Assembly: GCF_049337375.1 (NCBI RefSeq)
Contig: NZ_JBMPIV010000001.1
DNA: 64,000 nucleotides
Reading direction: 5' to 3' (one strand)
Source: Nannocystis pusilla
GTDB lineage: Bacteria; Myxococcota_A; Polyangia; Nannocystales; Nannocystaceae
The translations under genes were made by a program, and so were the position numbers. The notes beneath the pieces are model-generated. The model had not been told where the DNA came from. It did not search any database and saw only the letters and a program-made list of their open reading frames with translations. Positions 1,680 through 60,660 of this stretch are shown here, piece after piece (positions within the stretch are counted from its first letter, which is position 1; every line of letters starts with the position of its first letter).

Positions 1680-1749
1680 CATGTCCATTCAGAAATGTCC
1701 ATGTGGTAATGTTGAATGAGACATGTCCTATCATGCATGTCTAAGAGAG
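1680..1749. repeat. Array of five 14-bp units with CATGTCC core (CATGTCCattcaga / aATGTCCatgtggt / aATGTTGaatgaga / CATGTCCtatcatg / CATGTCTaagagag)
   Basis: Direct reading of the sequence. Lies in the divergent intergenic region between the lipoprotein gene and the blaI-like gene. Member of the dispersed family described in findings. Confidence 0.6.
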
Positions 1750-1908
1750 CACGTCGGATCCGGGCGAGCCCATTAAAGGAGGCCGCGCGACGCTCGGCGC
1801 AAAATGCGCGATCGGCTGCTGACATGTACGAAAGTGCAGGTAGGAGCGGTATCGCGCGCCTGCTCTGGAAGGCCGCCAGGGGCCGTGAATTCTCGCTTGA
1901 CGGCTTAC

Positions 1909-1918
1909 TACACATGTA
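1909..1918. promoter_or_regulatory. Putative BlaI/CopY-type operator (TACAcaTGTA, TACAnnTGTA form), overlapped by palindrome GTAGTACTAC (1916..1925)
   Basis: TACAnnTGTA inverted half-sites sit 19 bp upstream of the blaI-like ATG. The BlaI/MecI/CopY family is known to bind TACA/TGTA boxes. Confidence 0.4.
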
Positions 1919-1936
1919 GTACTACGCTTGTCGTTC

Positions 1937-2338
1937 ATGGGTGAGGTACTCCAGCTCAGCGATCTGCAGCTCGGCCTGCTGCGGATCTTGTGGGACCGCG
2001 GGGAGGCGACGGCGCTCGAGGTGCATGCGGCTCTGGTCGAGCAAGATCGGGGGCTCGCGCCGACGACGGTGTCGACGATGCTGTCGCGATTGGAGAAGAA
2101 GGGGACCATCGCGCACCGCACGGAGGGCCGGCAGTTCATCTACCGGGCGCTCGTGTGCGAGGGGGACGTGAGGCGCTCGATGCTGGGCAGGCTCACCGAT
2201 TACTTCTTCGGCGGGGACGTGGCGGCGCTGGTCAGCCACCTCGTCGAAGGCCGCTGCGTCGAACCGGACGACGTCGCGCGCCTGCAACAACTAGTGGCCG
2301 AACGGTCCGGCGGAGCTGAGGAACACGACGATGTTTGA
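1937..2338 (+). CDS. BlaI/MecI/CopY-family transcriptional repressor (penicillinase-repressor family winged helix)
   Basis: Protein ...LSDLQLGLLRILWDRGEATALEVHAALVEQDRGLAPTTVSTMLSRLEKKGTIAHRTEGRQFIYRAL... is typical of this family. Its 3' end overlaps the start of the downstream M56 gene by 8 nt. The ORF track starts at TTG 1928; the first ATG is at 1937. Confidence 0.8.
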   Translation: MGEVLQLSDLQLGLLRILWDRGEATALEVHAALVEQDRGLAPTTVSTMLSRLEKKGTIAHRTEGRQFIYRALVCEGDVRRSMLGRLTDYFFGGDVAALVSHLVEGRCVEPDDVARLQQLVAERSGGAEEHDDV

Positions 2339-4502
2339 TCTTGCGATCGATCCTGCCGGCCTCGCCGGTCTCGCGGCGCCTGCCGCTCACACGACGGTGA
2401 GCTGGCTCGGCACCTACTTTGTCCACTCGACGGTGCTCATCGGCGGCGTGTGGATGTTCAGCCGCTTCCTGCCGCTCGACGCGCTGACCCGCAGCTTGCT
2501 GTGGAAGACATCGCTGGTCGGCGGGCTGTTCACGGCGACGCTGCAGACGGGGCTCGGCGTCGAGCCGATGTTCGGCCGCGTCACCGTGGCGGCCAGCAGC
2601 CCGGACCTGGGCGCGCCGACGACGGCCCCGGCGCCGCCGCCGGTGGTCGAGGAGGAGCCGGCGACGCTGCTGGTGCCGTTCACCCGCGCGTGCGTCGGCT
2701 GCGAGTCGCACGTGGTGGTGGTCAGCGACGACGACATCACGGCGGTGTTCGCCTCGCCGCCGCTGTTCGTCGACGCGCCGGGCTGGGCGGTCGCGCCGAC
2801 GCCGGCGCCGATGCCCGCGCCGACGACCGCGGCCGCGCCGATGCAGATCGCGACCGCGGGTCCGGTCGGGGGCGTGAGCGCGGCGGTGTGGGCGTTCGCG
2901 GGGCTGTTCGTGTTCGGCGCCGCGGCCTCGCTCGGCCGGCTGGGGATGACGTTCTCTCGCCTGCGCCGCGGGCTCCGCGGTCGTCGCCTGCTGGGCTCGG
3001 GCTCGCTGCGCGAGCGGCTGACGCGGCTTCTGGCCCACGCGCGGCTGCCCGGCCACAGCGTCACGCTGAGCGAGTCGGCGGACATCAGCTCGCCGGTCGC
3101 CCTCACCGGCCGCGAGATCGTGGTGCCGGAGCAGGTGCGCGAGCTGGCGCCGCGGCAGCAGGAGGCGATGCTGGCTCACGAGCTGGCCCACGTGCTGCGC
3201 CGCGATCCGGCGTGGCAGGTGCTGGCGGCGTTCGTCGAGTCGCTGCTGTTCTTCCAGCCGCTCAATCGGGTGGCCCGCCGCGGGATGCAGGAGGCGGCGG
3301 AGGAGCTGTGCGACGACTGGGCGGTCCGTCACACCGGCTCGGAGGTGCACCTGGCGCGCTGCCTGGCCGAGGTCGCGGCGTGGCCTGGTCATCGGGACAT
3401 GTCGGCGTTCGCCAGCCCGATGGCGGGCCACGCCTCGCAGCTGGTGCGCCGGGTGAAGCGGCTACTCGACGTGCAGCTGCGCGACCGCGGGCTGTGGGCG
3501 CGGCGCTGGCGGGTGGCGCTCGGCGCAGCGCTGCTGGCGATGGTGACGTTCGGCGCGCCCGGGCTGTCGATCGCGGCCGAGGCGCAAGGTGCCCCGGAGT
3601 GGCCGACGTTGCCCGACAACGGGCCGGCGCCGCAGCCGACGCTGTCGTTCGTCCACGTGCCCGAGACGCCGATCGTGGCCGTGCGGACGCCGCACCACCA
3701 CGCGGTGCACGGGCACGAGATCATCGTCGTCGAGCATGCGCAGGATCTGACCCGCAAGCAGAAACGACTGCTGCGCCGGGCCGAGCGGCACGCCCGCAAG
3801 GCGGCCAAGCTGCGGGCCAAGAGCGGGCTGTACGCGGTGCCGGCGACTCACGCGGTGTACGTGCCGGTGTCGCACGTGACGCCGCCGACGCCGCCGACGC
3901 CGCCGACGCCGCCGACGCCGCCGACGCCGCCCAGCTTCAAGGTCGTGGTCGCGCACGATCACGACGACTGCGACGACGACGATCACGACGTGATGGTCCG
4001 GCCGATCGCCGTGCCGCACGTGGCCGTCCACCCGCACGTGTTCCACGTGCCGGACATCGACGAGGAGGCGATCGCGGCGCAGGCCGAGGCGATCGCGGCC
4101 CAGGTCGAAGCCCAGCTCGAGGGCCTCGACGAGCAGATCGAGCGCGAGCTGGAGAGCATCGACTTCGACAAGATCGCGGCCGACGTGCAGCGCGGGGTCC
4201 AGGCGTCGCTCCGCGGCGTCGAGAGGGCGCGCGAGCAGGCGGACCGGGCGCGCGAGCGGGCGGACCGGGCGCGTGAGCAGGGCGAGCGGGCGCGCGAGCA
4301 GGGCGAGCGGGCGCGCGAGCGGGCCGAGCGGGCGCGCGAGCGGGCCGAGCGGCAGGCCGAGAAGGGCCGCCGCAAGGCCGACGCCTCGCGGGCCGCAGCC
4401 GCGGTCCGCAGCGCGGTCGACGAGGCCCTGCGCGACGGGGTGATCGACGCCGAGGAGCAGCGCAAGATCAGCGAGGCGGCCCGCCAGGCCCGCGTGAAGT
4501 GA
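2331..4502 (+). CDS. BlaR1/MecR1-like M56 family membrane metalloprotease / signal transducer with unusual C-terminal tail
   Basis: N-terminal TM helices and HEXXH zincin motif (HELAHVLRRD) in an M56-like context. A TM segment follows the protease domain. The tail carries a (PPT)x5 run, a His/Asp-rich segment (HDHDDCDDDDHD, HVAVHPHVFHVP) and six RARExx(D/E) heptads. Forms an operon with the upstream repressor. Confidence 0.8.
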   Translation: MFDLAIDPAGLAGLAAPAAHTTVSWLGTYFVHSTVLIGGVWMFSRFLPLDALTRSLLWKTSLVGGLFTATLQTGLGVEPMFGRVTVAASSPDLGAPTTAPAPPPVVEEEPATLLVPFTRACVGCESHVVVVSDDDITAVFASPPLFVDAPGWAVAPTPAPMPAPTTAAAPMQIATAGPVGGVSAAVWAFAGLFVFGAAASLGRLGMTFSRLRRGLRGRRLLGSGSLRERLTRLLAHARLPGHSVTLSESADISSPVALTGREIVVPEQVRELAPRQQEAMLAHELAHVLRRDPAWQVLAAFVESLLFFQPLNRVARRGMQEAAEELCDDWAVRHTGSEVHLARCLAEVAAWPGHRDMSAFASPMAGHASQLVRRVKRLLDVQLRDRGLWARRWRVALGAALLAMVTFGAPGLSIAAEAQGAPEWPTLPDNGPAPQPTLSFVHVPETPIVAVRTPHHHAVHGHEIIVVEHAQDLTRKQKRLLRRAERHARKAAKLRAKSGLYAVPATHAVYVPVSHVTPPTPPTPPTPPTPPTPPSFKVVVAHDHDDCDDDDHDVMVRPIAVPHVAVHPHVFHVPDIDEEAIAAQAEAIAAQVEAQLEGLDEQIERELESIDFDKIAADVQRGVQASLRGVERAREQADRARERADRAREQGERAREQGERARERAERARERAERQAEKGRRKADASRAAAAVRSAVDEALRDGVIDAEEQRKISEAARQARVK
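4224..4349 (+). repeat. Six tandem 21-bp repeats (cgggcgcgcgagc[ag]gg[cg][cg]ga[cg]) encoding RARE(Q/R)(A/G)(D/E) heptads in the BlaR1-like tail
   Basis: Direct reading. Units are near-identical at the DNA level, so the tract could vary by slippage. Confidence 0.7.
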
Positions 4503-4517
4503 GGCGATAGTTTCGCA

Positions 4518-4600
4518 GATGTCCGGGGGGACATGCTCGTGCGAGCATGTCCCCTTTTTCATGGCCCGATGGGCATGGCTTTTGGGCATTTCCGGCGCTC
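4518..4600. repeat. Array of about six 14-bp units with CATGTCC-like cores (gATGTCC, CATGCTC, CATGTCC, CATGGCC, CATGGCT, CATTTCC)
   Basis: Direct reading. Lies between the convergent BlaR1-like and YceI genes. The first three units form the terminator hairpin listed separately. Confidence 0.55.
4527..4559 (+). terminator. Rho-independent terminator (perfect 13-bp stem GGGGACATGCTCG/CGAGCATGTCCCC, 2-nt loop, then TTTTT)
   Basis: Hairpin plus T-run 25 bp after the BlaR1-like stop codon. Every base pair was checked. Confidence 0.6.
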
Positions 4601-4673
4601 GCGGCCTGCGGGGCGCGCGGCCAATGATGCGCGGCCGGGCGGGTCGGCGCGGAGACCGAGCGCGGTCGCGCGG

Positions 4674-6631: not shown

Positions 6632-6673
6632 GCTGTCCGAAAAGATATGTCTTTAAAAACATGGCCGAACGGG
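6632..6673. repeat. Three 14-bp units (gCTGTCCgaaaaga / tATGTCTttaaaaa / CATGGCCgaacggg)
   Basis: Direct reading. Lies in the divergent intergenic region upstream of the nitroreductase gene. Confidence 0.45.
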
Positions 6674-6911
6674 CAGAGAGAGGTGCGGCGGCGAGGCGGT
6701 CCGATGCGCTGTCCGTCCCATGCCGCGCCGGAGAGGTCGGGCCGGACGCGGTCGATTCTCACGAACTGCAGGCGCATGGGGCAGAAATCGTGTGGTCGAG
6801 GCTGGCCGCATTCAGCGCGCCGAGGGGCATCCGGCGGCTCGGCGGGGGCAGGTACGTGGATCCTGACGGCTCCGGCTTGACGGCGCGGGCGGGGCGCGAG
6901 ACAGCTACGGC

Positions 6912-8993: not shown

Positions 8994-9111
8994 GAAGATG
9001 TCCTGAAAGACATGCTTGCATCGATGACGACAACAGGGCCGCTCGCGCCGCTCATGCCGCGGCCAGCCTTCGCATGCTCGCATGGACATGTCTTGAAGGC
9101 CATGCGATGCC
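8994..9111. repeat. Two arrays of 14-bp CATGTCC-type units (8994..9021 gATGTCCtgaaaga/CATGCTTgcatcga; 9070..9111 CATGCTCgcatgga/CATGTCTtgaaggc/CATGCGAtgcctcg)
   Basis: Direct reading. Lies in the intergenic region between the crystallin-like and YdeI-like genes. Confidence 0.5.
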
Positions 9112-11883: not shown

Positions 11884-11925
11884 CCTGTCCCGTGGAACAT
11901 GTCCGAAGCACCCTTGCCCAGAGGC
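11884..11925. repeat. Three 14-bp units (cCTGTCCcgtggaa / CATGTCCgaagcac / cCTTGCCcagaggc) next to hairpin AGGGCC-n9-GGCCCT
   Basis: Direct reading. Lies 45 bp upstream of the M4 protease start. Confidence 0.4.
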
Positions 11926-15461: not shown

Positions 15462-18400
15462 ATGGTGCTTGACTCGGATGTCTCCGCCGGCCGCTCGGGC
15501 AGGTTGCACGTGCTCGCCGGTGGCGGCGAGATGGGCGCGCGCATGCGGGAGATCGACTGGGCGAAGACGCCGCTCGGCCCCGTCGACGCCTGGCCGCAGA
15601 GCCTCAAGACCTGCGTCCGCATCATCCTGACCTCGCTCCAGCCGATGTTCGTCTGGTGGGGCGACGAGCTCATCAACCTGTACAACGACGCCTACAAGTC
15701 GATCGTCGGCGGCAAGCACCCGGAGGCGCTGGGACAGCCCGCCTCCGCCGTGTGGCGCGAGATCTGGGATCAGGTCGGGCCGCGCGCCGCGTCGGCGATG
15801 CGCCTCAACGAGGGCACGTACGACGAGGCGCTGCTGCTGATCATGGAGCGCTACGGCTACCCCGAGGAGACGTACTACACGTTCTCCTACAGCCCGGTGC
15901 CGAACGACCAGGGCGGGACCGGCGGGATCATCTGCGCCAACACCGACGATACGCAGCGGATCATCGGTGAGCGCCAGCTCGCCCTGCTGCGCGAGCTGGC
16001 CGCCCGCACGACCGAGGCGCGCACGTGGGAAGAGGTGTGCGTCCGCGGTGCGGCGTCGCTGCAGACCAACCCGAAGGACCTGCCGTTCGCGCTGATCTAC
16101 ATCGCCGACGCCGACCGGCGCCGCGTGCAGCTGGCGGGGGCAGCCGGGCTCCCGCGCGGCCACGCCGGCGCGCCGGAGGTCGTGTCGACGCTCGAGGACT
16201 CGGTGTGGCCGTTCGCCGAGGCGCTGCACGGGCACGAGCGCGTCATCGAGATACCGCCTGTCCTCGGGGACATCCCCACCGGCGCCTGGCCGCGACCGCC
16301 GACGCACGCCGTCGCCCTGCCGATCGCCCCGTCGGGGGAGACCGGTCGCGCCGGGGTCTTGCTCGTCGGGCTGAGCCCGTTCCGCAAGCTCGACGACAAC
16401 TACCGCGGCTTCTTGCAGCTGGTCGCCGGGCAGCTCGCGGCCAGCATCGCCAACGCGCAGGCCTACGAGGAGGAGCGGCGGCGGGCCGAGGCGCTGGCCG
16501 AGCTCGATCGCGCCAAGACGATCTTCTTCAGCAACGTCAGCCACGAGTTCCGCACGCCGCTGACGCTGATGCTCGGCCCGCTCGAGGACGCGCTCTCGGC
16601 GGCGAAGCGCCGGCTCGAGGGCGCCGACCTCGACACCGCGTACCGCAACGCCGTCCGCCTGCTCAAGCTCGTCAACGTGCTGCTCGACTTCTCGCGCATC
16701 GAGGCCGGGCGGATCCAGGCGTCGTACGAGCCGATCGATCTGTCGGCCCTGACGACCGACCTGGCGAGCGCCTTCCGCTCGGCCGTCGAGCGCGCCGGTC
16801 TCGTCTTCGACGTCGACTGTCCGCCGCTCTCCGAGCCGATCCACGTCGACCACGACATGTGGGAGAAGATCGTGCTCAACCTGCTGTCGAACGCGCTCAA
16901 GTTCACGTTCGAGGGCACGATCGCGGTCGCGCTGCGCCTGCGCGGCGACCTGGTCGAGCTGACCGTACGCGACACTGGCACCGGCATCCCGGAGCACGAG
17001 CTGCCGCACCTGTTCCGGCGCTTTCATCGGGTCCAGGGCGCGCGCTCACGGACCCACGAGGGCTCGGGGATCGGGCTCGCGCTGGTCCACGAGCTCGTGC
17101 GCCTGCACGAAGGGACGATCCACGTCACCAGCGAGGTCGGCGTCGGCACGACGTTCACGGTGGCGATCCCACGCGGCCACGCGCACCTGCCCGCGGAAAA
17201 GATCAACCTCCGCCGCACCCAGGTGTCGTCGGCCACCGGCGCGGCGCCGTACGTGCAGGAGGCGCTGCGCTGGCTGGCCGGCCCGCAGCAAGGCGACGAC
17301 GACCTCGCCGCGGACGCGCTGGGAGCCGCCTCCGATCCGGCGCTCGAAGCCGGACCGCCGGCGCGGATCCTGCTCGCCGACGACAACGCCGACATGCGCG
17401 ACTACGTCGGCCGCGTGCTGCAGCAGCGGTGGATCGTCGACGCCGTCCCCGACGGCGCCGTCGCGTTCGCGGCGGCGCTGGAGCACCCCCCCGACCTCGT
17501 CTTGACCGACGTCATGATGCCGAACCTCGACGGCTTCGGCCTGCTCCGCGCGCTGCGCGAGGACCCGCGCACGCGGCGGATCCCGGTGCTGATGCTGTCG
17601 GCGCGCGCAGGCGAGGAGTCGCGCGTCGAGGGCCTCGAGGCCGGCGCCGACGACTACCTCGTCAAGCCGTTCTCCGCGCGCGAGCTGGTCGCCCGCGTCG
17701 CTACTCACCTGCAGATCGCCCGCCTGCGCGCCGCCGCGGAGCGCGAGCGCGAGAAGCTGTACGACCTGTTCATGCAGGCGCCGGTGCCGATCGCCGTGTT
17801 CGTCGGTCCGGAGCACCGCTACGAGGTCGCCAACCCGCCGTACTGCGAGATGCTCGGGCGCCCGGAGCTGGTCGGCCAGACCGTGCGCGAGGCGTTCCCG
17901 GAGATCGGCGAGCACGCCATGATCACGTCGCTCGACGCCGTGGTGGCGACCGGCCGACCCGTGCACGTGTTCGAGCTCAACATCCCGGTCATGCGCCACG
18001 GCGTCATCCGGGACGCTTACTTCAACTACGTGGCGCAGCCGATCCGCGCCCCGAGCGACGCGGTCACCGGCGCCATGGTCGTCGCCTTCGAGGTCACCGA
18101 GCAGGTGCTCGCGCGTCAACGGGTCGAGCGGCTCTCCGAGGAGCTGGCGCTGTCGAACAAGGAGCTCGACCAGTTCGCCTACGTCGCCTCGCACGACCTC
18201 AAGGCGCCGCTGCGGGGGATCGCCAGCCTGTCGCAGTGGATCGAGGAGGCGCTCGCCGACAAGATCGACGAGGAGTCGCAGCGGCACATGCACCTGCTGC
18301 GCAGGCGCGTGCTCCGGCTCGAGACGCTGATCGACGGGATCCTCCACTACTCGCGCGCCGGCCGCATGCGCGTCGACGCGGTCAACGTCGACACCGGACA

Positions 18401-46712: not shown

Positions 46713-46958
46713 CATGTCCCTGGAGGCATGTCATGCGAATCCGCCGTGTTCGGCGTCGTGAGCGGAGCTCCGGCGGTGAAAGTCCCAAGGGACAGGATCG
46801 AACGAGCAGGCCTTGCGTGCGCCCCGCGGAGCTCGCCGCGTGGCCACGCCGATCTTTGTCCTGAAGGACATGTCGTGGAGTTCATGTCACCGGCCGTCGT
46901 CGGCGCGGCGGCGGCCTTGCTGCTCTTTCGGTCATGCCCGATGGGGCATGTCCCGGAG
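46713..46958. repeat. Three arrays of 14-bp CATGTCC-type units in the 290-bp convergent intergenic region (46713..46740, 46856..46897, 46931..46958)
   Basis: Direct reading: CATGTCCctggagg/CATGTCAtgcgaat; tTTGTCCtgaagga/CATGTCGtggagtt/CATGTCAccggccg; CATGCCCgatgggg/CATGTCCcggaggt. Confidence 0.5.
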
Positions 46959-46959
46959 G

Positions 46960-47436
46960 TCACCCTTCAAGCCGGCGCCTCGCCGGCCAGCAGCGCGGGT
47001 CCCATTCGACCTCCGGCTGCAGCGCCCGCAGGTGCGCCAGGGTCCGGGTCGTGAGCACGTGGACCGGGGCGAAGTCCTGGTGGCGGCCGGGCGCGGCGAA
47101 GCGGCCGGGGCCGTCGGCGGCGGCCTGCAAGCGCACACGGCGGCCGAGCAGCGACGACAGCGCGGGCTCGACGTCCGCGCCCTCGACGACCTCGCCGTCG
47201 GGCAGCGTCACGCGCAGCGGCAGCGGGGCGTCGCGGTCGGCGAGCAGCGCCGCCCGGCAGGCGCGCAGGGCGGGGTGCGTCGGCCCGCGCTTGTTGGCGA
47301 TCCTCTCGCCGGTGTCGAGGTCGACCGCCACGTACTTGCGATCGCCGTCGCAGCCCGCGTGATCGACGTGGGTCTCGGGCAGCGACTCGCCCAGCATCGC
47401 CTTGACGGGGTAGCGCCAGATCGCCAGGACGCCCAT
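46960..47436 (-). CDS. MOSC domain-containing protein
   Basis: Internal start MGVLAIWRYPVKAMLGESLPETHVDHAGCDGDRKYVAVDLDTGERI (MOSC beta-barrel N-terminus) in ORF 46960..47766. Upstream ORF extension is junk. Confidence 0.65.
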   Translation of the reverse strand: MGVLAIWRYPVKAMLGESLPETHVDHAGCDGDRKYVAVDLDTGERIANKRGPTHPALRACRAALLADRDAPLPLRVTLPDGEVVEGADVEPALSSLLGRRVRLQAAADGPGRFAAPGRHQDFAPVHVLTTRTLAHLRALQPEVEWDPRCWPARRRLEG

Positions 47437-47482: not shown

Positions 47483-47510
47483 GATGTCCGAAAGGACATC
47501 TGGTGACAGG
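47483..47510. repeat. Two 14-bp units (gATGTCCgaaagga / CATCTGGtgacagg) upstream of the MOSC gene
   Basis: Direct reading. Confidence 0.4.
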
Positions 47511-51581: not shown

Positions 51582-52856
51582 ATGCTCACCGCTTCCCGGG
51601 TCCCGCTGGCCGTCCTCCTCGTGCTCGTCGCCTGCGGCGGCGAGAGCAGCTCCACGGAGACGGGGACGGCCGCGACGTCGACGGAGCCCGCGACGACGAC
51701 CGGCACGACGAGCGACGCGACGACCTCCACCACCGAGGCCGCGCCGACGACCACGGGCACCAGCGGCGACGAGAGCACCACCGGCGCGCCGCTCGAAGGC
51801 TACGCCGATCCGGCGCTGTGGCTGTGTCACCCGGACAAGCCGGTCGACTCGGACGCCTGCCTCTCGGCCGACCTGACCGCGACCGAGCTCCTGCCCGACG
51901 GCGGGACCGCGATCGTCGAGCACACGATCGCCGCCGCGCCGGCGTTCGACTGCTTCTACGTCTACCCGACCGTCGACATCCGCCTGCAACCGGGCCAGAC
52001 CGAGAGCTTCGACGACCTCGATCAGGAGCTCGACCCGCTGCTCAACCAGGCGGCTCGCTTCACCTCGATGTGCCGGATGTTCGCGCCGCTGTACCACCAG
52101 GTGACGATCGGCACCTACGGCAGCGGCGAGGCCGAGACGCTGCTGACCGCGGCCTACCAGGACGTGCTCGCCGCGTTCGAGAGCTACCTCGAGCACCACG
52201 CCGACGGCCGGCCGCTCTTGATCCTCGGCCACTCGCAGGGCACGTACATGACGACGCGGCTGCTCCAGGAGGTCGTCGAGCCCGATCCGGCCCTGCGCGA
52301 GCGGCTGCTGGCGGCGTTCCTGCTCGGCGGCTCGTTCAGCGTGCCGTTCGGCGCGGCGGCCGGCGGCACGCTCTCGACCATCCCGCTGTGCGACAGCGCC
52401 GAGCAGCTCGGCTGCGTCGTCGCCTACCGCACCTACGCGGCCGAGCTGCCGCCCGAAGGCGGCTCGAACGCGCCCGACATCCCCGGCAACGACGTCGCGT
52501 GCGCCAACCCGGCCGCGCCCGGAGGCGGCTCGGCGCGCGCCCGCGGGGCGTTCTTCCCCAACTTCACCCACCAGGAGGCGGTGTTCCCGAAGATCGACTT
52601 CGGCGCGGTCATCGACACGCCCTTCGTGGTGATGCGCGATTTCTACGACCTGTCGTGCCAGACCGACGGCGACGGCCAGCACTTCCTCGCGGTCGCGCCC
52701 GCGCCCGACGACGGCGACGTGCGCACCGACCCGATCGACGTCACGGCGCCGCTGTTCGCCCCGGCCTTCCTCGGCCTGCACGTGCTCGACTACAACTTCG
52801 CGCTGCAGGACCTGCTCGACGCCGCCGCGGCCAAGGCGGCCGCCGCGGGGCTGTGA
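51582..52856 (+). CDS. Lipoprotein with Thr-rich linker and DUF3089-like (lipase-like alpha/beta) domain
   Basis: Internal start MLTASRVPLAVLLVLVAC. Linker TETGTAATSTEPATTTGTTSDATTSTTEAAPTTTGTSGDESTTG. LILGHSQGT motif. Confidence 0.7.
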   Translation: MLTASRVPLAVLLVLVACGGESSSTETGTAATSTEPATTTGTTSDATTSTTEAAPTTTGTSGDESTTGAPLEGYADPALWLCHPDKPVDSDACLSADLTATELLPDGGTAIVEHTIAAAPAFDCFYVYPTVDIRLQPGQTESFDDLDQELDPLLNQAARFTSMCRMFAPLYHQVTIGTYGSGEAETLLTAAYQDVLAAFESYLEHHADGRPLLILGHSQGTYMTTRLLQEVVEPDPALRERLLAAFLLGGSFSVPFGAAAGGTLSTIPLCDSAEQLGCVVAYRTYAAELPPEGGSNAPDIPGNDVACANPAAPGGGSARARGAFFPNFTHQEAVFPKIDFGAVIDTPFVVMRDFYDLSCQTDGDGQHFLAVAPAPDDGDVRTDPIDVTAPLFAPAFLGLHVLDYNFALQDLLDAAAAKAAAAGL

Positions 52857-52875
52857 ACCCGAGGACATGTCCCGA

Positions 52876-52959
52876 GGGGAAGGTCCGAAGGGGCATGTCC
52901 TCGGCGGCATGTAGCGAGGAACATGCCCTGAAGGCCATGAGGATCAGTCGAGCGGCCGC
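52876..52959. repeat. Array of six 14-bp units (CATGTCCcgagggg / aAGGTCCgaagggg / CATGTCCtcggcgg / CATGTAGcgaggaa / CATGCCCtgaaggc / CATGAGGatcagtc)
   Basis: Direct reading. Lies between convergent genes and overlaps the 3' end of the GNAT ORF by about 15 nt. Confidence 0.6.
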
Positions 52960-53479: not shown

Positions 53480-55349
<1,870 letters not shown>

Positions 55350-55363: not shown

Positions 55364-57740
55364 GCGCCGGACCGCGCGGGCGCTGCGGACCCTGCTGCCG
55401 GTCTTGCTGTCGGCTTCGGCCTGCGCCCCGCGCGGGCCGACGACCGCGGAGCCGGGTGCCCCGAAGGACATGTCCTCGGAGACATCCGGTGCGGCGGCGG
55501 TGGCGGCCTGCGACAAGCAGGCGAGCGCGGTCCAGGACGGGCTGGTGCGCCTGGCGGATCGCTACCTGTGGGAGGAGATCGAGCTGCTCGTCCAGGCCCA
55601 CGCGGCGACCCGCGGCCGGCCCGACGCGGCTCGCTGCGCCGAGGCGACCCGCGCGGCGCTGACGACCGTGACGCTGCGCTGGGCCGAGCAGGGGGCCGAG
55701 TCGGGCGGGTCGCAGAGCCACGCGCTGGCCCGCCAGGCCTACGCGGCGCTGCGCCAGCACTTCCCCGCCGAGGCCGAGGCGCCGCTGCTGCACCACGCGA
55801 TGGGCAAGCTCGAGTGGGCCCGCGCCGAGCGGCTGACGCTCGAGATCGGCGAGCGCACCCTGACCGACGAGGCGCTGCGCGAGGCCCACGCCCACCACCG
55901 CGCCGCCCTGGCCGGCGGGCTGCCGACCGAGCAGGCCGCCCGCTCGGCCCGCGCCCAGCTCGACGCGGTCCGCCGCGTGCGCGAGGGAGAGCCTGCTCGA
56001 TGGGTCATGTCTGAACAGACATGTCTGCCGGATCCGCGGGGCCGCTGCATCGACCCGGTCCCGCGCGTCGCCCCCGGCGAGCTGACCGCCGGCGACCGCG
56101 AGTGGCTGGCCGCCTACGACGCCTTCCTCGCCGAGCCCGGGCTGCAGGGCACGCCCGAGGCCGGGCAGGTCGCGGTCGAGCGGGCCGAATTGCTGATGCG
56201 GTACCGCCGCTGGGACGAGGCCGAGACGAGCCTGCGCGCCGTCACGGGGCCGGCGCGCGAGCAGGCGCGGGCGCTGCTGGTCGGCCTGCTGCTGGCGCGC
56301 TGGATGGAGGCCGCCAGCGCCGGCGATCGCTCGGCCGCCCGCGTCGCCCTGGTCACCGCGGCCGTCGAGGTCGAGGCCGCCGGCGGGCCGCAGGTGGCCC
56401 AGGTGGCGGCGCTGCGGCGCGCGGCGCTGTGGGCCCAGGCCGAGGAGTCGGAGGCGGTCGGCGACGACGCTCGCTGCGGCGCGGCCTTCGAGGCGCTCTA
56501 CGCCGACCTCGGCGCCGACATCCACGCGGCGGCCGAGGCGGCCGACGGCGCCGGTCGCTGCTACGAGCGCGCCGGCCTGACGCAGAAGGCGATCGACTGG
56601 CTCGAGCGCATGGCCGACGTCCACCGCGAGGACCCGCGGGCCCCCGACGCGGTGCTGCGGCTGGCCCGCTTGCACGAGCGGATCTTGAACGACGAGCAGG
56701 CCCGCGACCGCTACCTCGATCTGGTGGCCCGCGCCCCGCGACACCGCGCCGCCGCGACCGCCCGCCGCCGCTCGCTGATCTTGAGCCTGCGCGCCGGGAC
56801 ATTGCCCGAAGGACAGCTGGACGCGCTGATCCGCGGCCGCCCGGAGGAGCGCACGCTGGCGGCGGCGATCCAGTTCCGCGCGGTGTTCCGCCCCGGCGTC
56901 ACGCCCGAGGCGGCCGAGAAGTACATCGAGCGGTTCGGCAAGGAGGGCGGGCCGCGGCGGCTGGCGATCGCCCACGCGCGCGCGGCCGAGGCGTGGCTGC
57001 GGGCGTCCTGCCCGGTCCCCGGGGCCGAGGGCCTGTGCGTCGAATTCGGCCGCGACCGCACGCCGGCGCGGGTGGTCGCCCGCCTGCCCAAGCCGCACGC
57101 CAAGGGCCGCGAGCACCTCGACCGCGCGCAGAAGTTGTTGCCCGAGGTCAGCGGCGGCGAGGTCGACAAGCTCGAGGCGCCGATCGCCGTCGACGCCGAC
57201 GAGGCGCGCGCCGCCAGCCGCCAGGTCGCGCTATTGCAGGGCGACCTCGACGCCGAGTCGGCGCTCACCAGCCAGCCGCCGAAGAGCCTCGACCCGGCCC
57301 GCTCGCGCGCGTGGCTCGAGGTCCGCAAGGCCGAGGTCGAGCGCATGAGCGCGGTCTACGAGACCGCCACCGCGGTCGGGACCGGCGGCCGCGATCAGTC
57401 GGCGGCGCTGGTCGAGACCCGCAAGGCGCAGGTGTACGAGTCCGACCTGGCCCTGCTCGACGAGGTGGCCGCCGCAGTCGAGGCCGCCGGCGACGCCGGC
57501 CTGGCTCAGCAGATGCGCGAGCTGGCGGCTCAGCGCCGCGAGGCGGTGTTCACCGCCTACGCCCGCTGCCTCGACCACGTGGCCGCGTGGGGCCACGACG
57601 CCGGGGGCCAGAGCGCCCTGTGCCGCGCCGGCCTGGGCCGCCTGGTCGGTCGCTACGAGGAGCCGCTGGAGTACGCGCCCGATCACGACGGGCGGGTGAT
57701 CGTCGGCGCGGCGGCCCGAGCGTCGGGCCCTCCGCGGTGA
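55350..57740 (+). CDS. Large alpha-helical (TPR-like) lipoprotein downstream of the kinase
   Basis: MARRERRTARALRTLLPVLLSASAC (lipobox). Overlaps the kinase stop by 14 nt. Helical, Ala/Arg/Glu-rich repeats. Contains two in-frame CATGTCC-type repeat copies (55469..55496, 56005..56032). Confidence 0.6.
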
Positions 57741-57828
57741 AGCGCTCCCGAATTGGGCGCGCGCTCGCCGTGAAGCGGGGGACCGAGCCTTTGAAAGGAA
57801 GTGGTCGCCGCCGGCGCGTGGGCGAGGT

Positions 57829-57988
57829 TACGAGCTCGTTGCGCGAGGCGAGGGGACCGAGCCGCCGCGGGCGGGCGGCCATGACGCCGGGCCCGCCGCG
57901 GTGAAGCCTACGAGCTCGTTGCGCGAGGCGAGGGGACCGAGCCGCCGCGGGCGGGCGGCCATGACGCCGGGCTCGCCGCGGTGAAGTC
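57829..57988. repeat. Two tandem copies of an 80-bp unit (tacgagctcgttgcgcgaggcgaggggaccgagccgccgcgggcgggcggccatgacgccgggc[c/t]cgccgcggtgaag..)
   Basis: Direct reading. Copies differ at one or two positions. Lies immediately 3' of the TPR-like gene. Confidence 0.7.
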
Positions 57989-58008
57989 CCGGGAGCAGAG
58001 CGCGAGGT

Positions 58009-58092
58009 CACGAGGCATGCTCCAAAGAACATGTCTCATCGAGCATATCGTATCCGAAATGGCGATTGATACATGTCCCGCGGGACATGCCC
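58009..58092. repeat. Array of six 14-bp units (CATGCTCcaaagaa / CATGTCTcatcgag / CATATCGtatccga / aATGGCGattgata / CATGTCCcgcggga / CATGCCCgaagtgc)
   Basis: Direct reading. Lies between convergent genes. Confidence 0.55.
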
Positions 58093-58104
58093 GAAGTGCC
58101 AGCC

Positions 58105-59217
58105 TCAGTCGCCGAGCTCGCGCAGCAGGATCCGCGCGCGCAGGCGGCGGCGCTCGTCGGCGCCGAGGCTGTCGACGTAGGCACGCAGGAGCGCGCGGGC
58201 CTCGGCGCGGGCGGCCGGGTCGGCGGCGTCGGCCAGCAGGATGCCGAGGTTGAAGGTCAGCTCCGGCGGCAGCTTGGCGGGCGTCGCGGTGTCGAGCCCG
58301 AGCTCGGCGAGCGCGCTGCGATAGGCGGCCTCGGCCGGCTCGCGCTCGCGGCGGCGGGCGTGGCTGACCCCGAGGCCAAGGAACGCGGCGTAGCGCAGGC
58401 GCGGCGAGGGGGCGGCCGAGGCCAGTCGGTACAGCCGCACCGCCTCGTCGAGGTTGCCCGCCGCGAGCTCGGCGGCGGCCCAGGCGAGCGCCGCGGCGTG
58501 GTCGTCGGGTACCAGCTCGAGCGCGCGGGCGAAGCGACGCCGACCGTCGACCGGATCGGCCGAGCGGAAGGCGATCCGCCCGCACGCGGCCGCCAGCACC
58601 GCCGCGCCCTCGCGGTCGCGCAGGCGGGCGAGCAGCGGGTCGGCGCGGTCGCGGCAGATCGGCGCGGCCCGCTCGCGCGGATCGGCGTCGTGCAGCGCGG
58701 TGAAGCGCAGCGCCAGGCTCAGCGCGTAGGGGTCGTCGGCGGTGACCGCCAGCGCGGCCGCGACGTCGCGCGCCAGCGCGGCCGCGTCGATCGGCCCGTC
58801 GCGCTTGCCCGGGTCCTCGGGCCGCCGCGCCCTGGCGTCGAGGTACGCCGAGACGTCGCGGGTGAGGCGGTAGACGGCGCGCGCCCCGGCCGTCAGCGGC
58901 AGCTCGCCCACCGCCGCGTCGATGTCGCCGACCCGCCCCGACTCGTGGGCCAGCACCGCCAGGGCGTAGGCCCGCGCGGTCGAGCCCGGATCGCGGCGCA
59001 GCAGGGCGAAACGGATCGCCAGCGCGCCCGCGTCGTCGCCGCAGCGGAGCAGGACGTCGGCCCGGGCGAGCGCGCGGGAGCTGTCCCCGGGGACAGGCGC
59101 CGGGGCGCACGGATCGACCGCGGCCGGGGCCGGCGGCGGGGCCGGCGGCGCCTTGTCCGGCGCCGTCTGACGCGCGCAGGCGAGCAGGAGCGCGCAGAGG
59201 AGCAGGGCGCGGGGCAC
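58105..59217 (-). CDS. TPR-repeat lipoprotein
   Basis: MPRALLLCALLLAC (lipobox). Ala/Leu/Arg-rich helical repeats (AYALAVLAHESGRVGDIDAA..., AVRLYRLASAAPSPRLRYAAFLGLGVSHARR...). Confidence 0.6.
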   Translation of the reverse strand: MPRALLLCALLLACARQTAPDKAPPAPPPAPAAVDPCAPAPVPGDSSRALARADVLLRCGDDAGALAIRFALLRRDPGSTARAYALAVLAHESGRVGDIDAAVGELPLTAGARAVYRLTRDVSAYLDARARRPEDPGKRDGPIDAAALARDVAAALAVTADDPYALSLALRFTALHDADPRERAAPICRDRADPLLARLRDREGAAVLAAACGRIAFRSADPVDGRRRFARALELVPDDHAAALAWAAAELAAGNLDEAVRLYRLASAAPSPRLRYAAFLGLGVSHARRREREPAEAAYRSALAELGLDTATPAKLPPELTFNLGILLADAADPAARAEARALLRAYVDSLGADERRRLRARILLRELGD

Positions 59218-59378
59218 GGGGCGGCGAGGATATCAGTGTGGCGCGAAGTTCTCCACGAAGCGGAGTCGTCGGGGCAGGTCGCGGACCCGCAGGTCGTCGG
59301 CGCCGCAGAACCATGCTTCGCCGCTCACGAGGCCGCAGCTTGACGACGAGGGGGTCCAGCGGAGCACCGCCCAGCCTG

Positions 59379-59690
59379 CTACGAGCGATCGCGGTCCAGA
59401 CGGTCCAGGTCCACGTCCGAGCGTCGTGCCGAGAGGGCATGGCGCTCCCGCCACTCTTGCGTGCACCGCCAGCACCCGAGGCGGTCGAGCTCGTGGTGCC
59501 GCCGCATCACGGTCTCGTCGCGCGCGCCGGTCGCCAGCGCCCGCTCGAACAGGGCCTCGCGCTCGCGGCAGATCCACACCAGGAAGAGAAGCTCCGCCTC
59601 GATCAGCTCGATCGGGCGGTCCTCCTCACGCGCGGCGACGACGTGTGCGCAGGCGCCGAGCGTCCCGCCTTGCCCGTTGCCGATCGGCAA
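59379..59690 (-). CDS. Hypothetical protein (about 100 aa; contains HHELDRLGCWRC motif)
   Basis: GC3 is about 90% in this frame and composition is protein-like. ORF-track start is TTG. No recognised domain. Confidence 0.35.
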   Translation of the reverse strand: MPIGNGQGGTLGACAHVVAAREEDRPIELIEAELLFLVWICREREALFERALATGARDETVMRRHHELDRLGCWRCTQEWRERHALSARRSDVDLDRLDRDRS

Positions 59691-59812
59691 CGAATCGAGC
59701 CCATGGCTGCGACCTTGCCCCGTCCAGCTCGCCCGGTCCAGCCCCCTCGTGGCGCGAGTGGGAGCCGCAGGCCGACCGCGCCGCGAGCCCTCGCCACGTC
59801 TGTCGGAACGAC

Positions 59813-59840
59813 AATGTCCTTTTGGACATGTGATGATATT
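59813..59840. repeat. Two 14-bp units (aATGTCCttttgga / CATGTGAtgatatt)
   Basis: Direct reading. Confidence 0.4.
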
Positions 59841-59967
59841 GCCTTCGATTCGCCGCTCCCCGCGCCGGCGGCCGCCCCGCCGTGAGCAGAGGCCGATCTG
59901 CGGCGAATGTCGACACCCTGAATAGGCGGACCCGACGCGCGTCCGTGCGCACCGAGGTTTTTAAAAA

Positions 59968-60465
59968 ATGCACAAGATCATCCTGACCCTGCTGGCGCTC
60001 CTCTTCAGCGTGACCGGTTGCAGCTTCACGCTCTCGTCGCACGGCGGTTGGGGGTCGGACGGCCCCGCGCCGCTGATGGCCGGCCGCGGCTACGGCTGGG
60101 CCTCCGCGAGCGACCCGGGCCTGCACGGCCGCGGCAAGCCGGCCCGCCGCGTCGACGCCGGCGAGCGCCCCGCGACCAAGCCGGCCGGCGCGGCGCCCAC
60201 CAAGGCGAAGCAGCCGGCGATCACGTGGGCGGGGGAGGTGCCGCAGAAGTCGACGAAGCCGGCGATCGCGTGGGCGGGGGAGGTGCCGCAGAAGGCGAAG
60301 AAGCCGGCGATCACGTGGGCGGGGGAGGTGCCGCAGAAGGCGAAGCAGCCGGCGATCACGTGGGCCGGGAAGGTGCCGCCGAAGCGGGCCAAGCGGCCGA
60401 GAAAGCCCGCCGACGAGCAGCCGGCGATCACGTGGGCCGGCACCGTCCCGCCGCGTCCGCAATGA
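59968..60465 (+). CDS. Lipoprotein with five tandem 15-aa repeats (KPAITWAGEVPQKAK)
   Basis: MHKIILTLLALLFSVTGC (lipobox), preceded by an AT-rich tract (tttttaaaaaatg). The five repeats are encoded by 45-bp DNA repeats at about 60205..60438. Confidence 0.65.
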   Translation: MHKIILTLLALLFSVTGCSFTLSSHGGWGSDGPAPLMAGRGYGWASASDPGLHGRGKPARRVDAGERPATKPAGAAPTKAKQPAITWAGEVPQKSTKPAIAWAGEVPQKAKKPAITWAGEVPQKAKQPAITWAGKVPPKRAKRPRKPADEQPAITWAGTVPPRPQ

Positions 60466-60512
60466 GGTCGAGCAGGCGCGGCGCTCGAGACGCACGCCGA
60501 ACCTGCTCACAC

Positions 60513-60543
60513 GGCCATGTCCATGAGGACATGGCCGTTTTTT
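60513..60543 (+). terminator. Rho-independent terminator (GGCCATGTCC-atga-GGACATGGCC then GTTTTTT), built from two CATGTCC-type units
   Basis: Perfect 10-bp stem, 4-nt loop and T-run, 48 bp after the repeat-lipoprotein stop. Confidence 0.6.
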
Positions 60544-60637
60544 CGTGCACCGACTCCCGGGCGCCGCGGATGCCCCGTGCGTCGCAAAAACTGTCTCCGC
60601 GAGGCGGCGGCCCGCGCTCACCACATGGCGCAACGGA

Positions 60638-60660
60638 CATGTCCTTGAGGACCGCCGGAG
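60638..60660. repeat. GGACATGTCC palindrome / one to two 14-bp units (CATGTCCttgagga...)
   Basis: Direct reading. Confidence 0.35.

Follow-up and report, generated by a model that had tools for sequence, protein, structure and literature searches.

A short palindromic sequence recurs throughout a 64,000-nt stretch of the genome of Nannocystis pusilla, a soil myxobacterium (hereafter the window), raising the questions of what the repeated unit is, how it arose, and what keeps it in the genome. The first-pass annotation of these letters described tandem CATGTCC arrays and suggested a REP/BIME-like hairpin family, an array of sites for an abundant DNA- or RNA-binding protein, or a decayed mobile element.

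Unit and phasing of the repeat

CATGTCC occurred 27 times in the window, compared with 6.25 ± 2.35 (maximum 12) in dinucleotide-preserving shuffles. Pairs of CATG at a lag of 14 nt numbered 18, against 0.6 on average and at most 3 in Markov simulations, and harmonics were seen at lags of 28, 42, and 56 nt (7, 6, and 6 pairs), with 0–4 pairs at the remaining lags. The full 18-mer with up to four mismatches was present 75 times (21.7 ± 4.5 expected). Both the word and its 14-bp spacing therefore exceeded the shuffle or Markov expectation in the window, confirming, at a level far beyond chance, the dispersed and strictly phased family that had been described.

Each unit spans 18 bp and is palindromic, CATGTCC-N4-GGACATG (fuller consensus in Nannocystis, CATGTCC-YNNR-GGACATG), with a spacer of strictly 4 nt and half-sites one helical turn apart. 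The CATG joining adjacent palindromes is self-complementary, and because adjoining units have it in common, they advance by 14 bp and the arrays form 14-bp-step lattices. Exactly 4 nt 3' of ATGTCC, GGACAT with at most one mismatch was found in 298 of 592 cases, with no more than five at each non-periodic offset. A scan of spacers from 0 to 12 nt at up to two mismatches yielded 307 sites for N4 and 0–9 for each alternative length. Positions 8 and 11 of the unit showed a symmetric Y/R preference without covariation. TCC and GGA tended to be intact together when separated by the 4-nt spacer (odds ratio 5.5) and hardly so when separated by CATG (1.4), which identifies the N4-centred inverted repeat as the evolutionary unit, rather than the decamer GGACATGTCC that was initially proposed.

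Genomic context of the sites

All 17 loci of the first-pass annotation contain in-register units (Table 1). Those at 8997, 11884, 46713, 47483, and 59813 are single units, not arrays, and the array listed from 52876 truly starts at 52852/52862. Loci at 16257, 46779, 54632–54663, and 59080 were absent from the earlier list, as were further weak units at 4882–4913 and 25280–25311. The 35-kb stretch from 12 to 46.7 kb is nearly free of sites, holding 1 of the 20 good sites of the window. In ILAH1, the orthologue of the 58016..58089 array keeps the register with more CATG cores intact (four scored 18-mers, each with CATG at both ends), and in the window two cores have decayed, to CATA and AATG.

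Table 1. Members of the palindrome family and associated terminator-like structures in the window.
Position	Feature	Context	Remarks
1680..1753	array, 5 in-register units (2, 3, 4, 3, 4 mismatches)	divergent gap, hypothetical gene (-) / BlaI-like repressor gene (+)	
4518..4577	array, 4 units	convergent gap, BlaR1/M56 gene (+, stop 4502) / YceI gene (-)	
4526-4554	terminator-like 13-bp stem, then T5	inside the 4518..4577 array	
6632..6677	degenerate array, 3 units, 4 mismatches each	divergent gap	weak family member
8997..9014	single unit GATGTCCTGAAAGACATG, 2 mismatches	long non-coding stretch 8705-9658	
9073..9104	two units (2 and 2 mismatches) and a third CATG at 9101	non-coding stretch 8705-9658, downstream of M4 peptidase gene (-)	
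11884..11915	one unit and a half unit	21 nt upstream of M4 peptidase gene (-) ORF start	
16257..16274	single unit CCTGTCCTCGGGGACATC	within hybrid histidine-kinase gene	
46713-46730, 46779-46796, 46855-46886, 46933-46964	four unit groups, span 46713..46964	filling convergent gap, S1/P1 nuclease gene (+) / truncated MOSC gene (-)	arrays in equivalent gap of ILAH1 and N. punicea, not alignable
47483..47500	isolated unit GATGTCCGAAAGGACATC	~45 nt upstream of MOSC start codon	kept in three species; loop GAAA to GAAG
52852..52939	array, 6 units	convergent gap, DUF3089 stop codon 52856 to GNAT stop codon 52944	orthologous array in ILAH1 and N. punicea
54632..54663	two weak units	within Ser/Thr kinase gene	unit 54646 conserved in ILAH1 (L001 position 13069)
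55455..55486	two units	between Ser/Thr kinase gene and next gene; inside the next ORF's 5' end if its longer start 55350 is real	conserved in ILAH1
55992..56023	two units	inside ORF 55500-57740	unit CATGTCTGAACAGACATG identical in ILAH1
58016..58089	array over 6 register positions, perfect unit at 58072	convergent gap	orthologous array in ILAH1
59813..59830	single unit AATGTCCTTTTGGACATG, 1 mismatch	divergent gap	
60502..60544	perfect unit at 60516	downstream of gene 59968-60465 (+)	identical in ILAH1
60511-60538	terminator-like 12-bp stem, then T6	encloses unit 60516	
60624..60655	two units (2 and 3 mismatches)	convergent gap shared with 60502..60544	conserved in ILAH1

Densities and occupancies were counted with independent gene calls on five unbiased loci. 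Convergent intergenic DNA had 7.2 sites per kb, compared with 1.0 in tandem and 0.7 in divergent intergenic DNA and 0.13 in coding DNA, which bears out an enrichment between genes. The family occupied 11 of 15 convergent, 4 of 36 tandem, and 3 of 16 divergent gaps; the divergent promoter regions stressed in the first-pass annotation are thus a minor location. Coding sites were still at least 20-fold above chance, and deep within coding sequences 69 sites had the N4 spacer, against 0–3 for each alternative length. The median site started 23 nt past one stop codon and ended 17 nt before the opposite one. Convergent gaps with the family had a median length of 189 nt, compared with 36 nt for those without it, and the latter contained unique GC-rich hairpins (z-scores −3 to −4.4). 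These results showed that the word accumulates where DNA is free of promoter or coding constraint, chiefly in convergent gaps.

Distribution in Nannocystis and turnover of units

A scan across 185,579 species genomes yielded 65 stretches, of which 48 came from Nannocystis, 14 from Mesorhizobium, where the palindrome was a different one, and 3 were singletons of other phyla. The family was present in all sampled Nannocystis genomes and absent from Enhygromyxa, Plesiocystis, and Nannocystaceae ST9, with 0 sites in 85 kb of outgroup DNA. Its occurrence in independent assemblies of at least seven named Nannocystis species and several MAGs ruled out an assembly artefact. Extrapolation gave roughly 5,000 sites per genome, so that each Nannocystis genome is estimated to hold several thousand copies. 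No description of the Nannocystis family was found in a literature search, in agreement with the earlier remark that the element was not a recognised one. Given its intergenic stacking together with in-gene build-up by point mutation, the family can be placed beside REP elements, DNA-uptake sequences, and HIP1 as an apparently undescribed relative.

The origin of intragenic units was traced in two genes, encoding a Mur ligase and a multihaem cytochrome. The Mur ligase protein alignment was gap-free across 14 homologues, and the underlying DNA formed a series from ST9 (no motif) through the ERZ MAG (a TCC-N4-GG skeleton) and N. pusilla to RBIL2 and N. bainbridge, which had four to five CATG at exact 14-bp spacing; the CATG cores were created by the replacements P>M, G>C, and L>M. 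The cytochrome array involved A>V and L>M without any indel, and its synonymous changes, from GGC/GGG/CAC to GGA/GGA/CAT, ran against a GC3 bias of 93%. The substitutions that created CATG were of several kinds (C>A, G>T, and C>T). As read from these alignments, the two genes showed that the word was written in place by point substitutions, also inside conserved genes and against codon bias.

Intergenic arrays have a second route of growth, slippage in 14-bp steps, as indicated by 11 of 182 neighbouring pairs with identical loops (2.1 expected), and their units turn over fast. Between the window and ILAH1, loops were 62% identical, compared with 89% for other intergenic DNA, indicating rapid turnover. 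The arms (86%) were no better conserved than the remaining intergenic DNA, and only CATG (95%) was better conserved. One loop was inverted, from TGAA at window position 46855 to TTCA at L001 position 4859.

Hairpins, mutation, and a putative DNA reader

Most arrays folded well as RNA (z-scores −2 to −4.5), and both terminators claimed in the first-pass annotation held; canonical terminators were otherwise rare in the window. T-runs adjoined only 2–6 of 61 convergent arrays, so most arrays are not canonical terminators. Mismatches on the sense strand comprised 85 G·U and 75 A·C, showing no G·U excess, and loops showed neither a strand bias relative to transcription nor a tetraloop preference. 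When both arms departed from the consensus, they were complementary in 13 of 66 units (7.4 expected, p ~0.02). This covariation between arms is weak, and it speaks for intrastrand pairing, in a hairpin or during templated repair, and against half-sites being read independently.

Taken together, in-place writing, location, and geometry suggest that a directional, sequence-specific force is needed. We favour, with a probability of about 40%, a lineage-specific word written by a sequence-specific, probably dimeric DNA reader and tolerated in promoter-free gaps, where it probably serves as transcript-end hairpins. The most economical candidate would be a dimeric protein, confined to this lineage, that recognises the palindrome in duplex DNA and could stack at 14-bp steps, three of which (42 bp) equal four helical turns. 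The earlier suggestion that the arrays bind an abundant protein is favoured by the sequence specificity and by the strict spacing of 4 nt, although the content of the window suggests no such reader. Adjacent half-sites overlap by 4 bp, and two helix-turn-helix dimers would probably clash there, which makes full occupancy of an array doubtful. Candidate roles for the putative reader include uptake or self-recognition, a nucleoid protein, and an RNA polymerase roadblock, and arrays in convergent gaps would most probably also supply the inverted repeats for transcript-end hairpins that work in both directions.

The location could be explained by an RNA-level function alone, given the folding and the two textbook terminators. 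A REP-like element of this kind, providing transcript-end hairpins as bidirectional terminators without U-tracts, as 3' stabilisers, or as both, would owe its uniform sequence only to common descent and 14-bp slippage, with no DNA reader. We consider it unlikely, though the strongest of the rivals: the occupancy of convergent gaps, the closeness to stop codons, the weak compensatory covariation, and the generic hairpins of array-free convergent gaps all fit, and REPs share the location bias and act in 3'UTRs as terminators and stabilisers (PMC3733652; bioRxiv 10.64898/2026.03.23.713779). The REP/BIME-like proposal of the first-pass annotation thus agrees with the location, but the tests for an RNA role were negative or weak. 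A hairpin requires neither one stem sequence nor an exact 4-nt loop, yet other spacers are virtually absent; tandem gaps also contain 3' ends, yet their density is 7-fold below that of convergent gaps; and arrays were built inside genes at a codon and amino-acid cost, for which common descent is insufficient. A specific version of the reader hypothesis, improbable as it stands, is a drive resembling that of DUS/USS, in which a receptor for DNA uptake or another form of self-recognition would bind the word preferentially, and word-bearing alleles, favoured in transformation, would accumulate in place wherever tolerated. Natural transformation has been reported in Myxococcus xanthus, and the genus-specific, highly abundant word, present in coding and non-coding DNA and formed in place within variable segments of proteins, amino-acid changes included, would suit such a drive. 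However, known uptake sequences are asymmetric 9–12-mers without a fixed-spacer dyad or 14-bp arrays, unlike the Nannocystis word, and DUS occur at fairly regular intervals, about one per kb, in contrast to the nearly empty 35-kb stretch of the window. In Neisseria, closely spaced inverted DUS pairs act as terminators (PMC2397512), a direct analogue of the array location and of the hairpins proposed here for convergent gaps, and HIP1 was lately tied to transformation efficiency (bioRxiv 10.1101/2024.09.10.611283).

Less probable again is a mutational by-product with neither reader nor function, in which template switching at quasi-palindromes perfects and extends inverted repeats with minimal loops of 4 nt, slippage multiplies the 14-bp units, and selection merely clears arrays from constrained DNA. 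Template switching alters several bases simultaneously without indels, and this process would account for the indel-free intragenic arrays, the excess of symmetric arm variants, the inverted loop, the identical adjacent loops, the rapid loop turnover, and a location pattern that follows a constraint gradient. It is not sequence-specific, however, and would be expected to yield palindromes of every sequence in every genus, whereas a single word is enriched in one genus by orders of magnitude over composition; the several substitutions that create CATG are also unlike a single VSP-type repair bias. Operator arrays of one global transcription factor, such as a PadR-type winged-helix dimer, are very improbable, even though ATGTCC-N4-GGACAT literally matches the canonical PadR inverted motif ATGT-N8-ACAT (PMC3506622) and isolated units lie in promoter regions (the conserved one at 47483, and also 59813, 1680, and 11884). 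Promoter-containing divergent gaps had the lowest intergenic density and promoter-free convergent gaps the highest, arrays also occur inside genes, and the extrapolated number of sites is far beyond any regulon. The least credible reading is a decayed miniature mobile element, similar to a MITE or REPIN, whose movement would have depended on a transposase or RAYT. The two intragenic arrays arose by substitution, and their proteins align to those of outgroups without indels; the unit is only 14–18 bp, and we found no GTAG or CGTC tags, no target duplications, no terminal inverted repeats besides the unit, and no transposase or Y1_Tnp domain among 40 window ORFs scanned against Pfam. In-place substitution together with slippage argues that the family, although dispersed, palindromic, and mainly intergenic, is not a decayed transposon, and the greater length of occupied convergent gaps, which looks as though DNA had been added, is explained by 14-bp slippage.

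An 18-bp palindrome on a 14-bp lattice

The first-pass annotation had described a dispersed, 14-bp-phased CATGTCC family at 17 loci, and our analysis confirmed that such a family is real. The window contained 27 copies of CATGTCC, compared to 6.25 ± 2.35 in dinucleotide-preserving shuffles, and 18 CATG-CATG pairs at a lag of 14 (simulations: mean 0.6, maximum 3), with harmonics at lags 28, 42, and 56 and 0–4 pairs at the remaining lags. In-register units were present at all 17 loci, although the locus at 6632 was weak and five loci were single units, and four further loci had been missed. Tandem repeat finding with TRF picked up one array alone and was blind to the others because the spacers are variable.

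In register, each unit read CATGTCC-N4-GGACATG, a palindrome of 18 bp whose arms measure 7 bp. CATG is its own reverse complement, so that a unit's right arm also opens the following unit, and this overlap results in the 14-bp step. A distance of 14 bp separated neighbouring units in 182 of 227 cases, and arrays had up to 6–7 units. In a pooled set of 459 kb of Nannocystis DNA, which includes 48 loci chosen for a perfect double unit, 298 of 592 ATGTCC hexamers had GGACAT (≤1 mismatch) exactly 4 nt downstream, while no non-periodic offset yielded more than five. With up to two mismatches, the N4 form was found at 307 sites, while spacers of any other length between 0 and 12 gave 0–9 sites each. 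Spacer positions 1 and 4 showed a symmetric Y/R preference without covariation. The intactness of TCC and GGA was coupled across the N4 spacer (odds ratio 5.5) and hardly across CATG (odds ratio 1.4), so the unit is the N4-centred dyad, and the decamer GGACATGTCC that had been stressed previously was rejected as the unit.

To determine the taxonomic range, one genome per species (185,579 species) was scanned for the perfect double unit. The scan recovered 65 stretches, of which 48 were from Nannocystis (punicea, bainbridge, pusilla, exedens, radixulma, RBIL2, and MAGs), 14 from Mesorhizobium, and three were singletons from other phyla. The Mesorhizobium matches were rejected as family members, since they represent another element, which consists of one perfect palindrome of 44 bp. 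Densities were taken from unbiased loci only, because the pooled set was partly selected for perfect double units. In unbiased 21-kb loci, each Nannocystis genome had 7–15 good sites and 5–17 CATG pairs at lag 14; the more distant MAG ERZ1066117 had fewer sites, and none were found in 85 kb from Enhygromyxa salina, Plesiocystis pacifica, and Nannocystaceae ST9. The sharp boundary between every Nannocystis sampled and these outgroups therefore makes phylogenetic profiling for a reader gene possible. The density in unbiased Nannocystis loci (~0.43 sites per kb, ≤2 mismatches) would extrapolate to ~5,000 sites per genome. A link to phages was rejected, as the double unit was absent from viral contigs; the single unit had 103 scattered one-off matches there, which represent background. 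No earlier description of the family was found in the literature consulted, the window had no Rfam match at gathering thresholds, and no tRNA or tmRNA was found in it.

Location, origin, and turnover of the units

Using the collection's own gene calls for five unbiased loci (104 kb in total), we found 7.2 sites per kb in convergent intergenic regions (11 of 15 gaps occupied), 1.0 in tandem intergenic regions (4 of 36), 0.7 in divergent intergenic regions (3 of 16), and 0.13 in coding DNA, where gap occupancy is not applicable. The arrays had been placed in both convergent 3' regions and divergent regions by the first-pass annotation; the former setting was borne out, whereas the latter had the lowest intergenic density. 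In total, 34 of 46 sites were intergenic according to independent gene calls. The density order was unchanged on a larger set with our GC3-based gene caller, which is crude (starts are trimmed and ORFs are possibly fused). The median length was 189 nt for occupied convergent gaps and 36 nt for unoccupied ones, and the median distance between an array and the flanking stop codons was 23 nt at its start and 17 nt at its end. Family-free convergent gaps in the window had unique GC-rich hairpins (z-scores of −3 to −4.4), and all of those with such hairpins fell in 12–46.7 kb.

Deep within genes, 69 N4 sites were identified compared to 0–3 for spacer controls (≥20-fold), and the intermediates of their creation are visible inside conserved genes. 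In the Mur ligase of RBIL2 and N. bainbridge, five units were in exact 14-bp register across 'VMSRGPCLKEHDLEAMSVRTS', and the protein alignment with 13 homologues was gap-free at the array. The DNA formed a series from Nannocystaceae ST9, in which the motif is absent, through the ERZ MAG and N. pusilla to RBIL2 and N. bainbridge. The ERZ MAG had the TCC-N4-GG skeleton with CCGT, CAGG, CATG, and CCTG, and CATG was created via P>M, G>C, and L>M replacements. An array in a multihaem cytochrome, located between two haem motifs, involved A>V, L>M, and the synonymous changes GGC/GGG/CAC > GGA/GGA/CAT without any indel, and these changes oppose the genome-wide GC3 of ~93%. As 14 is not divisible by 3, successive intragenic units run through all three reading frames. 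Since the intragenic arrays are indel-free and their DNA changes stepwise, the arrays of these two genes were written in place by substitution and not inserted. VSP-type biased repair was rejected as the sole cause, as CATG was made by several substitution types. Such arrays bear on how strong a DNA-level force can be against codon bias and protein sequence.

In intergenic arrays, neighbouring spacers were identical in 11 of 182 pairs compared to 2.1 expected, which is evidence that these arrays also lengthen by 14-bp slippage. The window is syntenic with a Nannocystis sp. ILAH1 locus from 43.6 to 64 kb (95% nucleotide identity), and its DUF3089 protein is 89% identical to the ILAH1 and N. punicea counterparts. 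Orthologous arrays of the window and ILAH1 kept their position and register, with identities of 95% for CATG, 86% for arms, 62% for spacers, and 89% for other intergenic DNA; the units turn over rapidly. Arm conservation says little about selection in this comparison, because turnover mixes orthologous and paralogous units. An inverted spacer, TGAA in one unit and TTCA in its orthologue, is the mark that hairpin-mediated loop inversion or template switching leaves. One locus carried one unit per copy of a longer repeat, and therefore units can be multiplied within such repeats.

Coordinates of arrays, repeats, and neighbouring features in the window and in other scanned loci
Sequence	Position	Feature	Remarks
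Window	1–20000, 44001–64000	Standard signals	No sigma-70 consensus promoter matches; hairpin-plus-T-run terminators at or below shuffle expectation
Window	1680–1753	Array	In promoter region of the BlaI-like repressor gene (1928–2338) and the BlaR1/M56-like gene; the former lies immediately upstream of the latter
Window	4220–4367	21-bp repeat, 6.3 copies (63-bp period also scored)	C-terminal part of BlaR1/M56-like protein; alanine-zipper-like region
Window	4526–4559	Hairpin then T-run	Made of family units
Window	12000–46700	Site-poor stretch (35 kb, 54% of window)	1 of 20 good sites of the window; many intergenic regions; GC3 like rest of window; convergent gaps short, 15–71 nt
Window	16257, 46779, 54632, 59080	Loci absent from the first-pass list	
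Window; ILAH1 locus L001	46855; 4859	Orthologous units	Spacer reverse-complemented, TGAA vs TTCA
Window	46960–47436 (−)	Truncated MOSC gene	MOSC_N part alone left; in place of the 3' third found in ILAH1 and N. punicea, non-coding DNA with arrays
Window	52866–52900	Array picked up by TRF	
Window	57829–57986	80-bp tandem duplication, copies 98% identical	Downstream of gene end 57740, upstream of array 58016; ILAH1 short of ~73 nt, consistent with a single copy
Window	60202–60384	45-bp tandem repeat, 4.1 copies, 92% matches	In ORF 59968–60465 (hypothetical protein, no Pfam match); encodes 15-residue protein repeats
Window	60511–60544	Hairpin then T-run	Made of family units
N. punicea locus L002	4560–4760	About four tandem copies of a ~50-bp unit, CGGATTGCATCGGCCGCGCGGAGAGCCGCTCGCGGCCCTGAATCGCCTGG	By arrays downstream of S1/P1 nuclease gene; repeat absent from window
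N. pusilla locus L129	3498–3810	HD-domain ORF reading through three array groups	C-terminal tail repeats 'DMS' (GAC ATG TCC)
Scanned locus L137	2382–2557	Tandem repeat, period ~43–44 bp (CCTGTCCGCCAGGACATG)	One family unit per copy
Mesorhizobium locus L109	4300–4365	44-bp perfect palindrome, CCCCCCTCTGTCCTGCCGGACATGTCCGGCAGGACAGAGGGGGG	Common to at least 14 species; separate intergenic hairpin element fitting the search pattern by chance
Mesorhizobium locus L148	5780–5900	Same palindrome	Two copies 67 bp apart

Comparison with known repeat families

There are few very abundant lineage-specific words of the kind of REP, DUS/USS, and HIP1, and each has raised questions of molecular drive versus function. 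The Nannocystis word is unusually tractable owing to its crisp grammar of a fixed 4-nt spacer and a 14-bp lattice. We know of no described counterpart to a fixed 4-nt spacer combined with an overlapping 14-bp lattice.

In location and, probably, in 3'-end use, the word is most similar to REP/BIME elements (PMC3733652; bioRxiv 10.64898/2026.03.23.713779), which are also short palindromes of very high copy number, clustered and mostly extragenic, mainly between convergent ORFs and sometimes intragenic (PMC3733652). Like REP and REPIN sequences, it is a short and mostly extragenic palindrome with hundreds or more copies, located in convergent and unidirectional gaps and rarely in divergent ones, and use as 3'-end hairpins is probably common to both. 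However, its tandem gaps were much less occupied than in published REP families, and REP elements are 20–40 bp long with linkers, whereas the Nannocystis unit has 18 bp, a spacer that is always 4 nt, and an overlapping 14-bp lattice. The GTAG/CGTC tag of REP was also lacking: at the flanks of 181 arrays, GTAG was found once (4.9 expected) and CGTC 23 times (31 expected). The stems had no G·U excess, and the two arrays that could be tested had arisen through substitution in place rather than insertion. No Y1_Tnp or any other transposase domain was found by Pfam in the 40 ORFs of the window that were scanned, and no RAYT was seen in the window.

In mode of spread and persistence, the Nannocystis word comes closest to DUS/USS and HIP1 (PMC2397512; PMC5861425). 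DUS of Neisseria and USS of Pasteurellaceae are lineage-specific words that are repeated thousands of times, both inside and outside coding DNA, and affect protein sequence in genes, and the Nannocystis word is likewise lineage-specific and strongly over-represented in both types of DNA. Closely spaced inverted DUS pairs in Neisseria double as terminators (PMC2397512), and the arrays resemble the inverted DUS pairs that form terminator stems in their location at gene ends and their hairpin potential. Unlike DUS/USS, the word is dyad-symmetric with a fixed spacer, occurs in phased arrays, and is unevenly spaced along the chromosome, as the single good site in 12–46.7 kb illustrates. To our knowledge, there is no link between the word and competence.

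HIP1 (GCGATCGC) of cyanobacteria is a lineage-specific palindrome that is 15- to 300-fold over-represented and maintained in place, both inside ORFs and in the DNA separating them; its role is not settled (PMC5861425). Over-representation of at least 15-fold and in-place maintenance were also found for the Nannocystis word. However, HIP1 is an 8-mer across coding DNA with no convergent-gap preference and no tandem phasing, whereas the Nannocystis word is not spread through ORFs, its density being 0.13 per kb in coding DNA and 7.2 per kb between convergent genes. HIP1 has a connection to orphan methyltransferases; the window encodes no methyltransferase. The ACATGT/CATG core is a typical methylase or restriction site.

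MetJ metboxes (8 bp) and omega-protein heptads (7 bp) form head-to-tail arrays of 2–6 short symmetric boxes with a fixed, non-helical period, which are bound cooperatively by stacked dimers. Tandem symmetric boxes of fixed period are also seen in the Nannocystis arrays, but MetJ and omega arrays are known from a handful of promoters or centromere-like sites on each replicon, whereas the Nannocystis word would occur in thousands of copies, at gene ends. The TRIT motif of Mycobacterium tuberculosis, a lineage-specific conserved terminator hairpin, is similar in providing sequence-conserved hairpins 3' of genes in a GC-rich genome with few U-tract terminators. As far as we know, TRIT forms no phased arrays, has no strict 4-nt loop rule, and has not been reported inside genes. 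The Nannocystis word belongs to none of the REP, DUS/USS, and HIP1 families: it lacks the tag and the insertion of REP, the asymmetry and even spacing of DUS, and the coding distribution of HIP1.

A proposed duplex reader, hairpins, and rival explanations

A directional, sequence-specific force has to exist, because unspecific palindrome-templated mutation or slippage would give palindromes of all sequences in all genera, and we therefore regard a mutational by-product as improbable, even with slippage evident in intergenic arrays. Our preferred explanation, to which we assign a probability of about 0.4, is that a lineage-specific reader of the DNA duplex drives the word into the chromosome, that sites accumulate where constraint is lowest, and that those in convergent gaps would double as inverted repeats of transcript-end hairpins. 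The grammar of the word, its taxonomic limit, its location, its in-place origin, and the slippage are shown by the sequences; we infer this reader, its nature, and any role of the arrays in termination. A dimer reading half-sites one helical turn apart depends on both a fixed sequence and a four-base spacer, whereas a hairpin could have other stem sequences and loops of other lengths. A purely RNA-level, REP-like role seems unlikely, although the arrays as RNA had folding z-scores of −2 to −4.5 and, in units with both arms non-consensus, the arms were complementary in 13 of 66 cases compared to 7.4 expected (p about 0.02). On the sense strand, G·U was not in excess of A·C (85 vs 75), loops had no strand bias relative to transcription and no GNRA or UUCG tetraloop preference, and the loop length was invariant at 4 nt. 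Most arrays do not have the form of an intrinsic (Rho-independent) terminator, since T- or A-runs were next to only 2–6 of 61 convergent arrays; T-tract enrichment at arrays was marginal. Terminators with a hairpin and a T-run were rare in the window, and the two convincing ones, both made of family units, agree with the array-coincident terminators noticed in the first-pass annotation.

The remaining alternatives are less probable than an RNA-level role. An uptake drive of the DUS kind is quite unlikely: the spread through coding and non-coding DNA resembles that of DUS, but the symmetry, phasing, and uneven spacing of the word do not. Global PadR-type operators are very improbable. ATGTCC-N4-GGACAT fits the PadR box ATGT-N8-ACAT letter for letter (PMC3506622), but PadR operators are few per genome and lie at promoters, whereas among intergenic regions the word was sparsest in divergent gaps and densest in convergent ones, which have no promoters. 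The idea of a decayed miniature mobile element, proposed from the sequence at first, was not borne out, and a decayed MITE or REPIN is the least probable origin of all. Transposition conflicts with the absence of indels in the intragenic arrays and with the missing GTAG/CGTC tags, the flanks carried no repeats beyond partial units, and the arrays, whose in-place origin was shown for two genes, do not fit a MITE with its terminal inverted repeats, target-site duplication, and insertion polymorphism.

A bolder form of the duplex-reader explanation, which is possible but doubtful, is that the arrays are docking lattices. A dimeric DNA-binding protein peculiar to Nannocystis would stack on them in 14-bp steps, and its activity would drive its own word in through substitutions in place, at the expense of codon bias and protein sequence. 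Such a protein may recognise self-DNA during uptake, or act as a roadblock or topological barrier where polymerases converge. If true, docking lattices would amount to a new type of protein-DNA code, written periodically and genome-wide, and separate from REP, which is transposed, from DUS, which is asymmetric and lacks phasing, and from HIP1, which also lacks phasing and is mostly coding.

The arrays also bear on how transcripts end between converging genes in GC-rich myxobacteria, which are almost without U-tract terminators; standard signals of the E. coli type are nearly uninformative in this Nannocystis genome. Motif scans would be confused by the arrays, since GGACATGTCC matches a p53 half-site perfectly and ATGT-N8-ACAT corresponds to a PadR box. 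The arrays are expected to affect 3'-end gene calling, cloning, and assembly in Nannocystis natural-product producers, and those without in-frame stops may extend or blur annotated gene ends. In the HD-domain ORF of N. pusilla, GC3 declines along the C-terminal tail.
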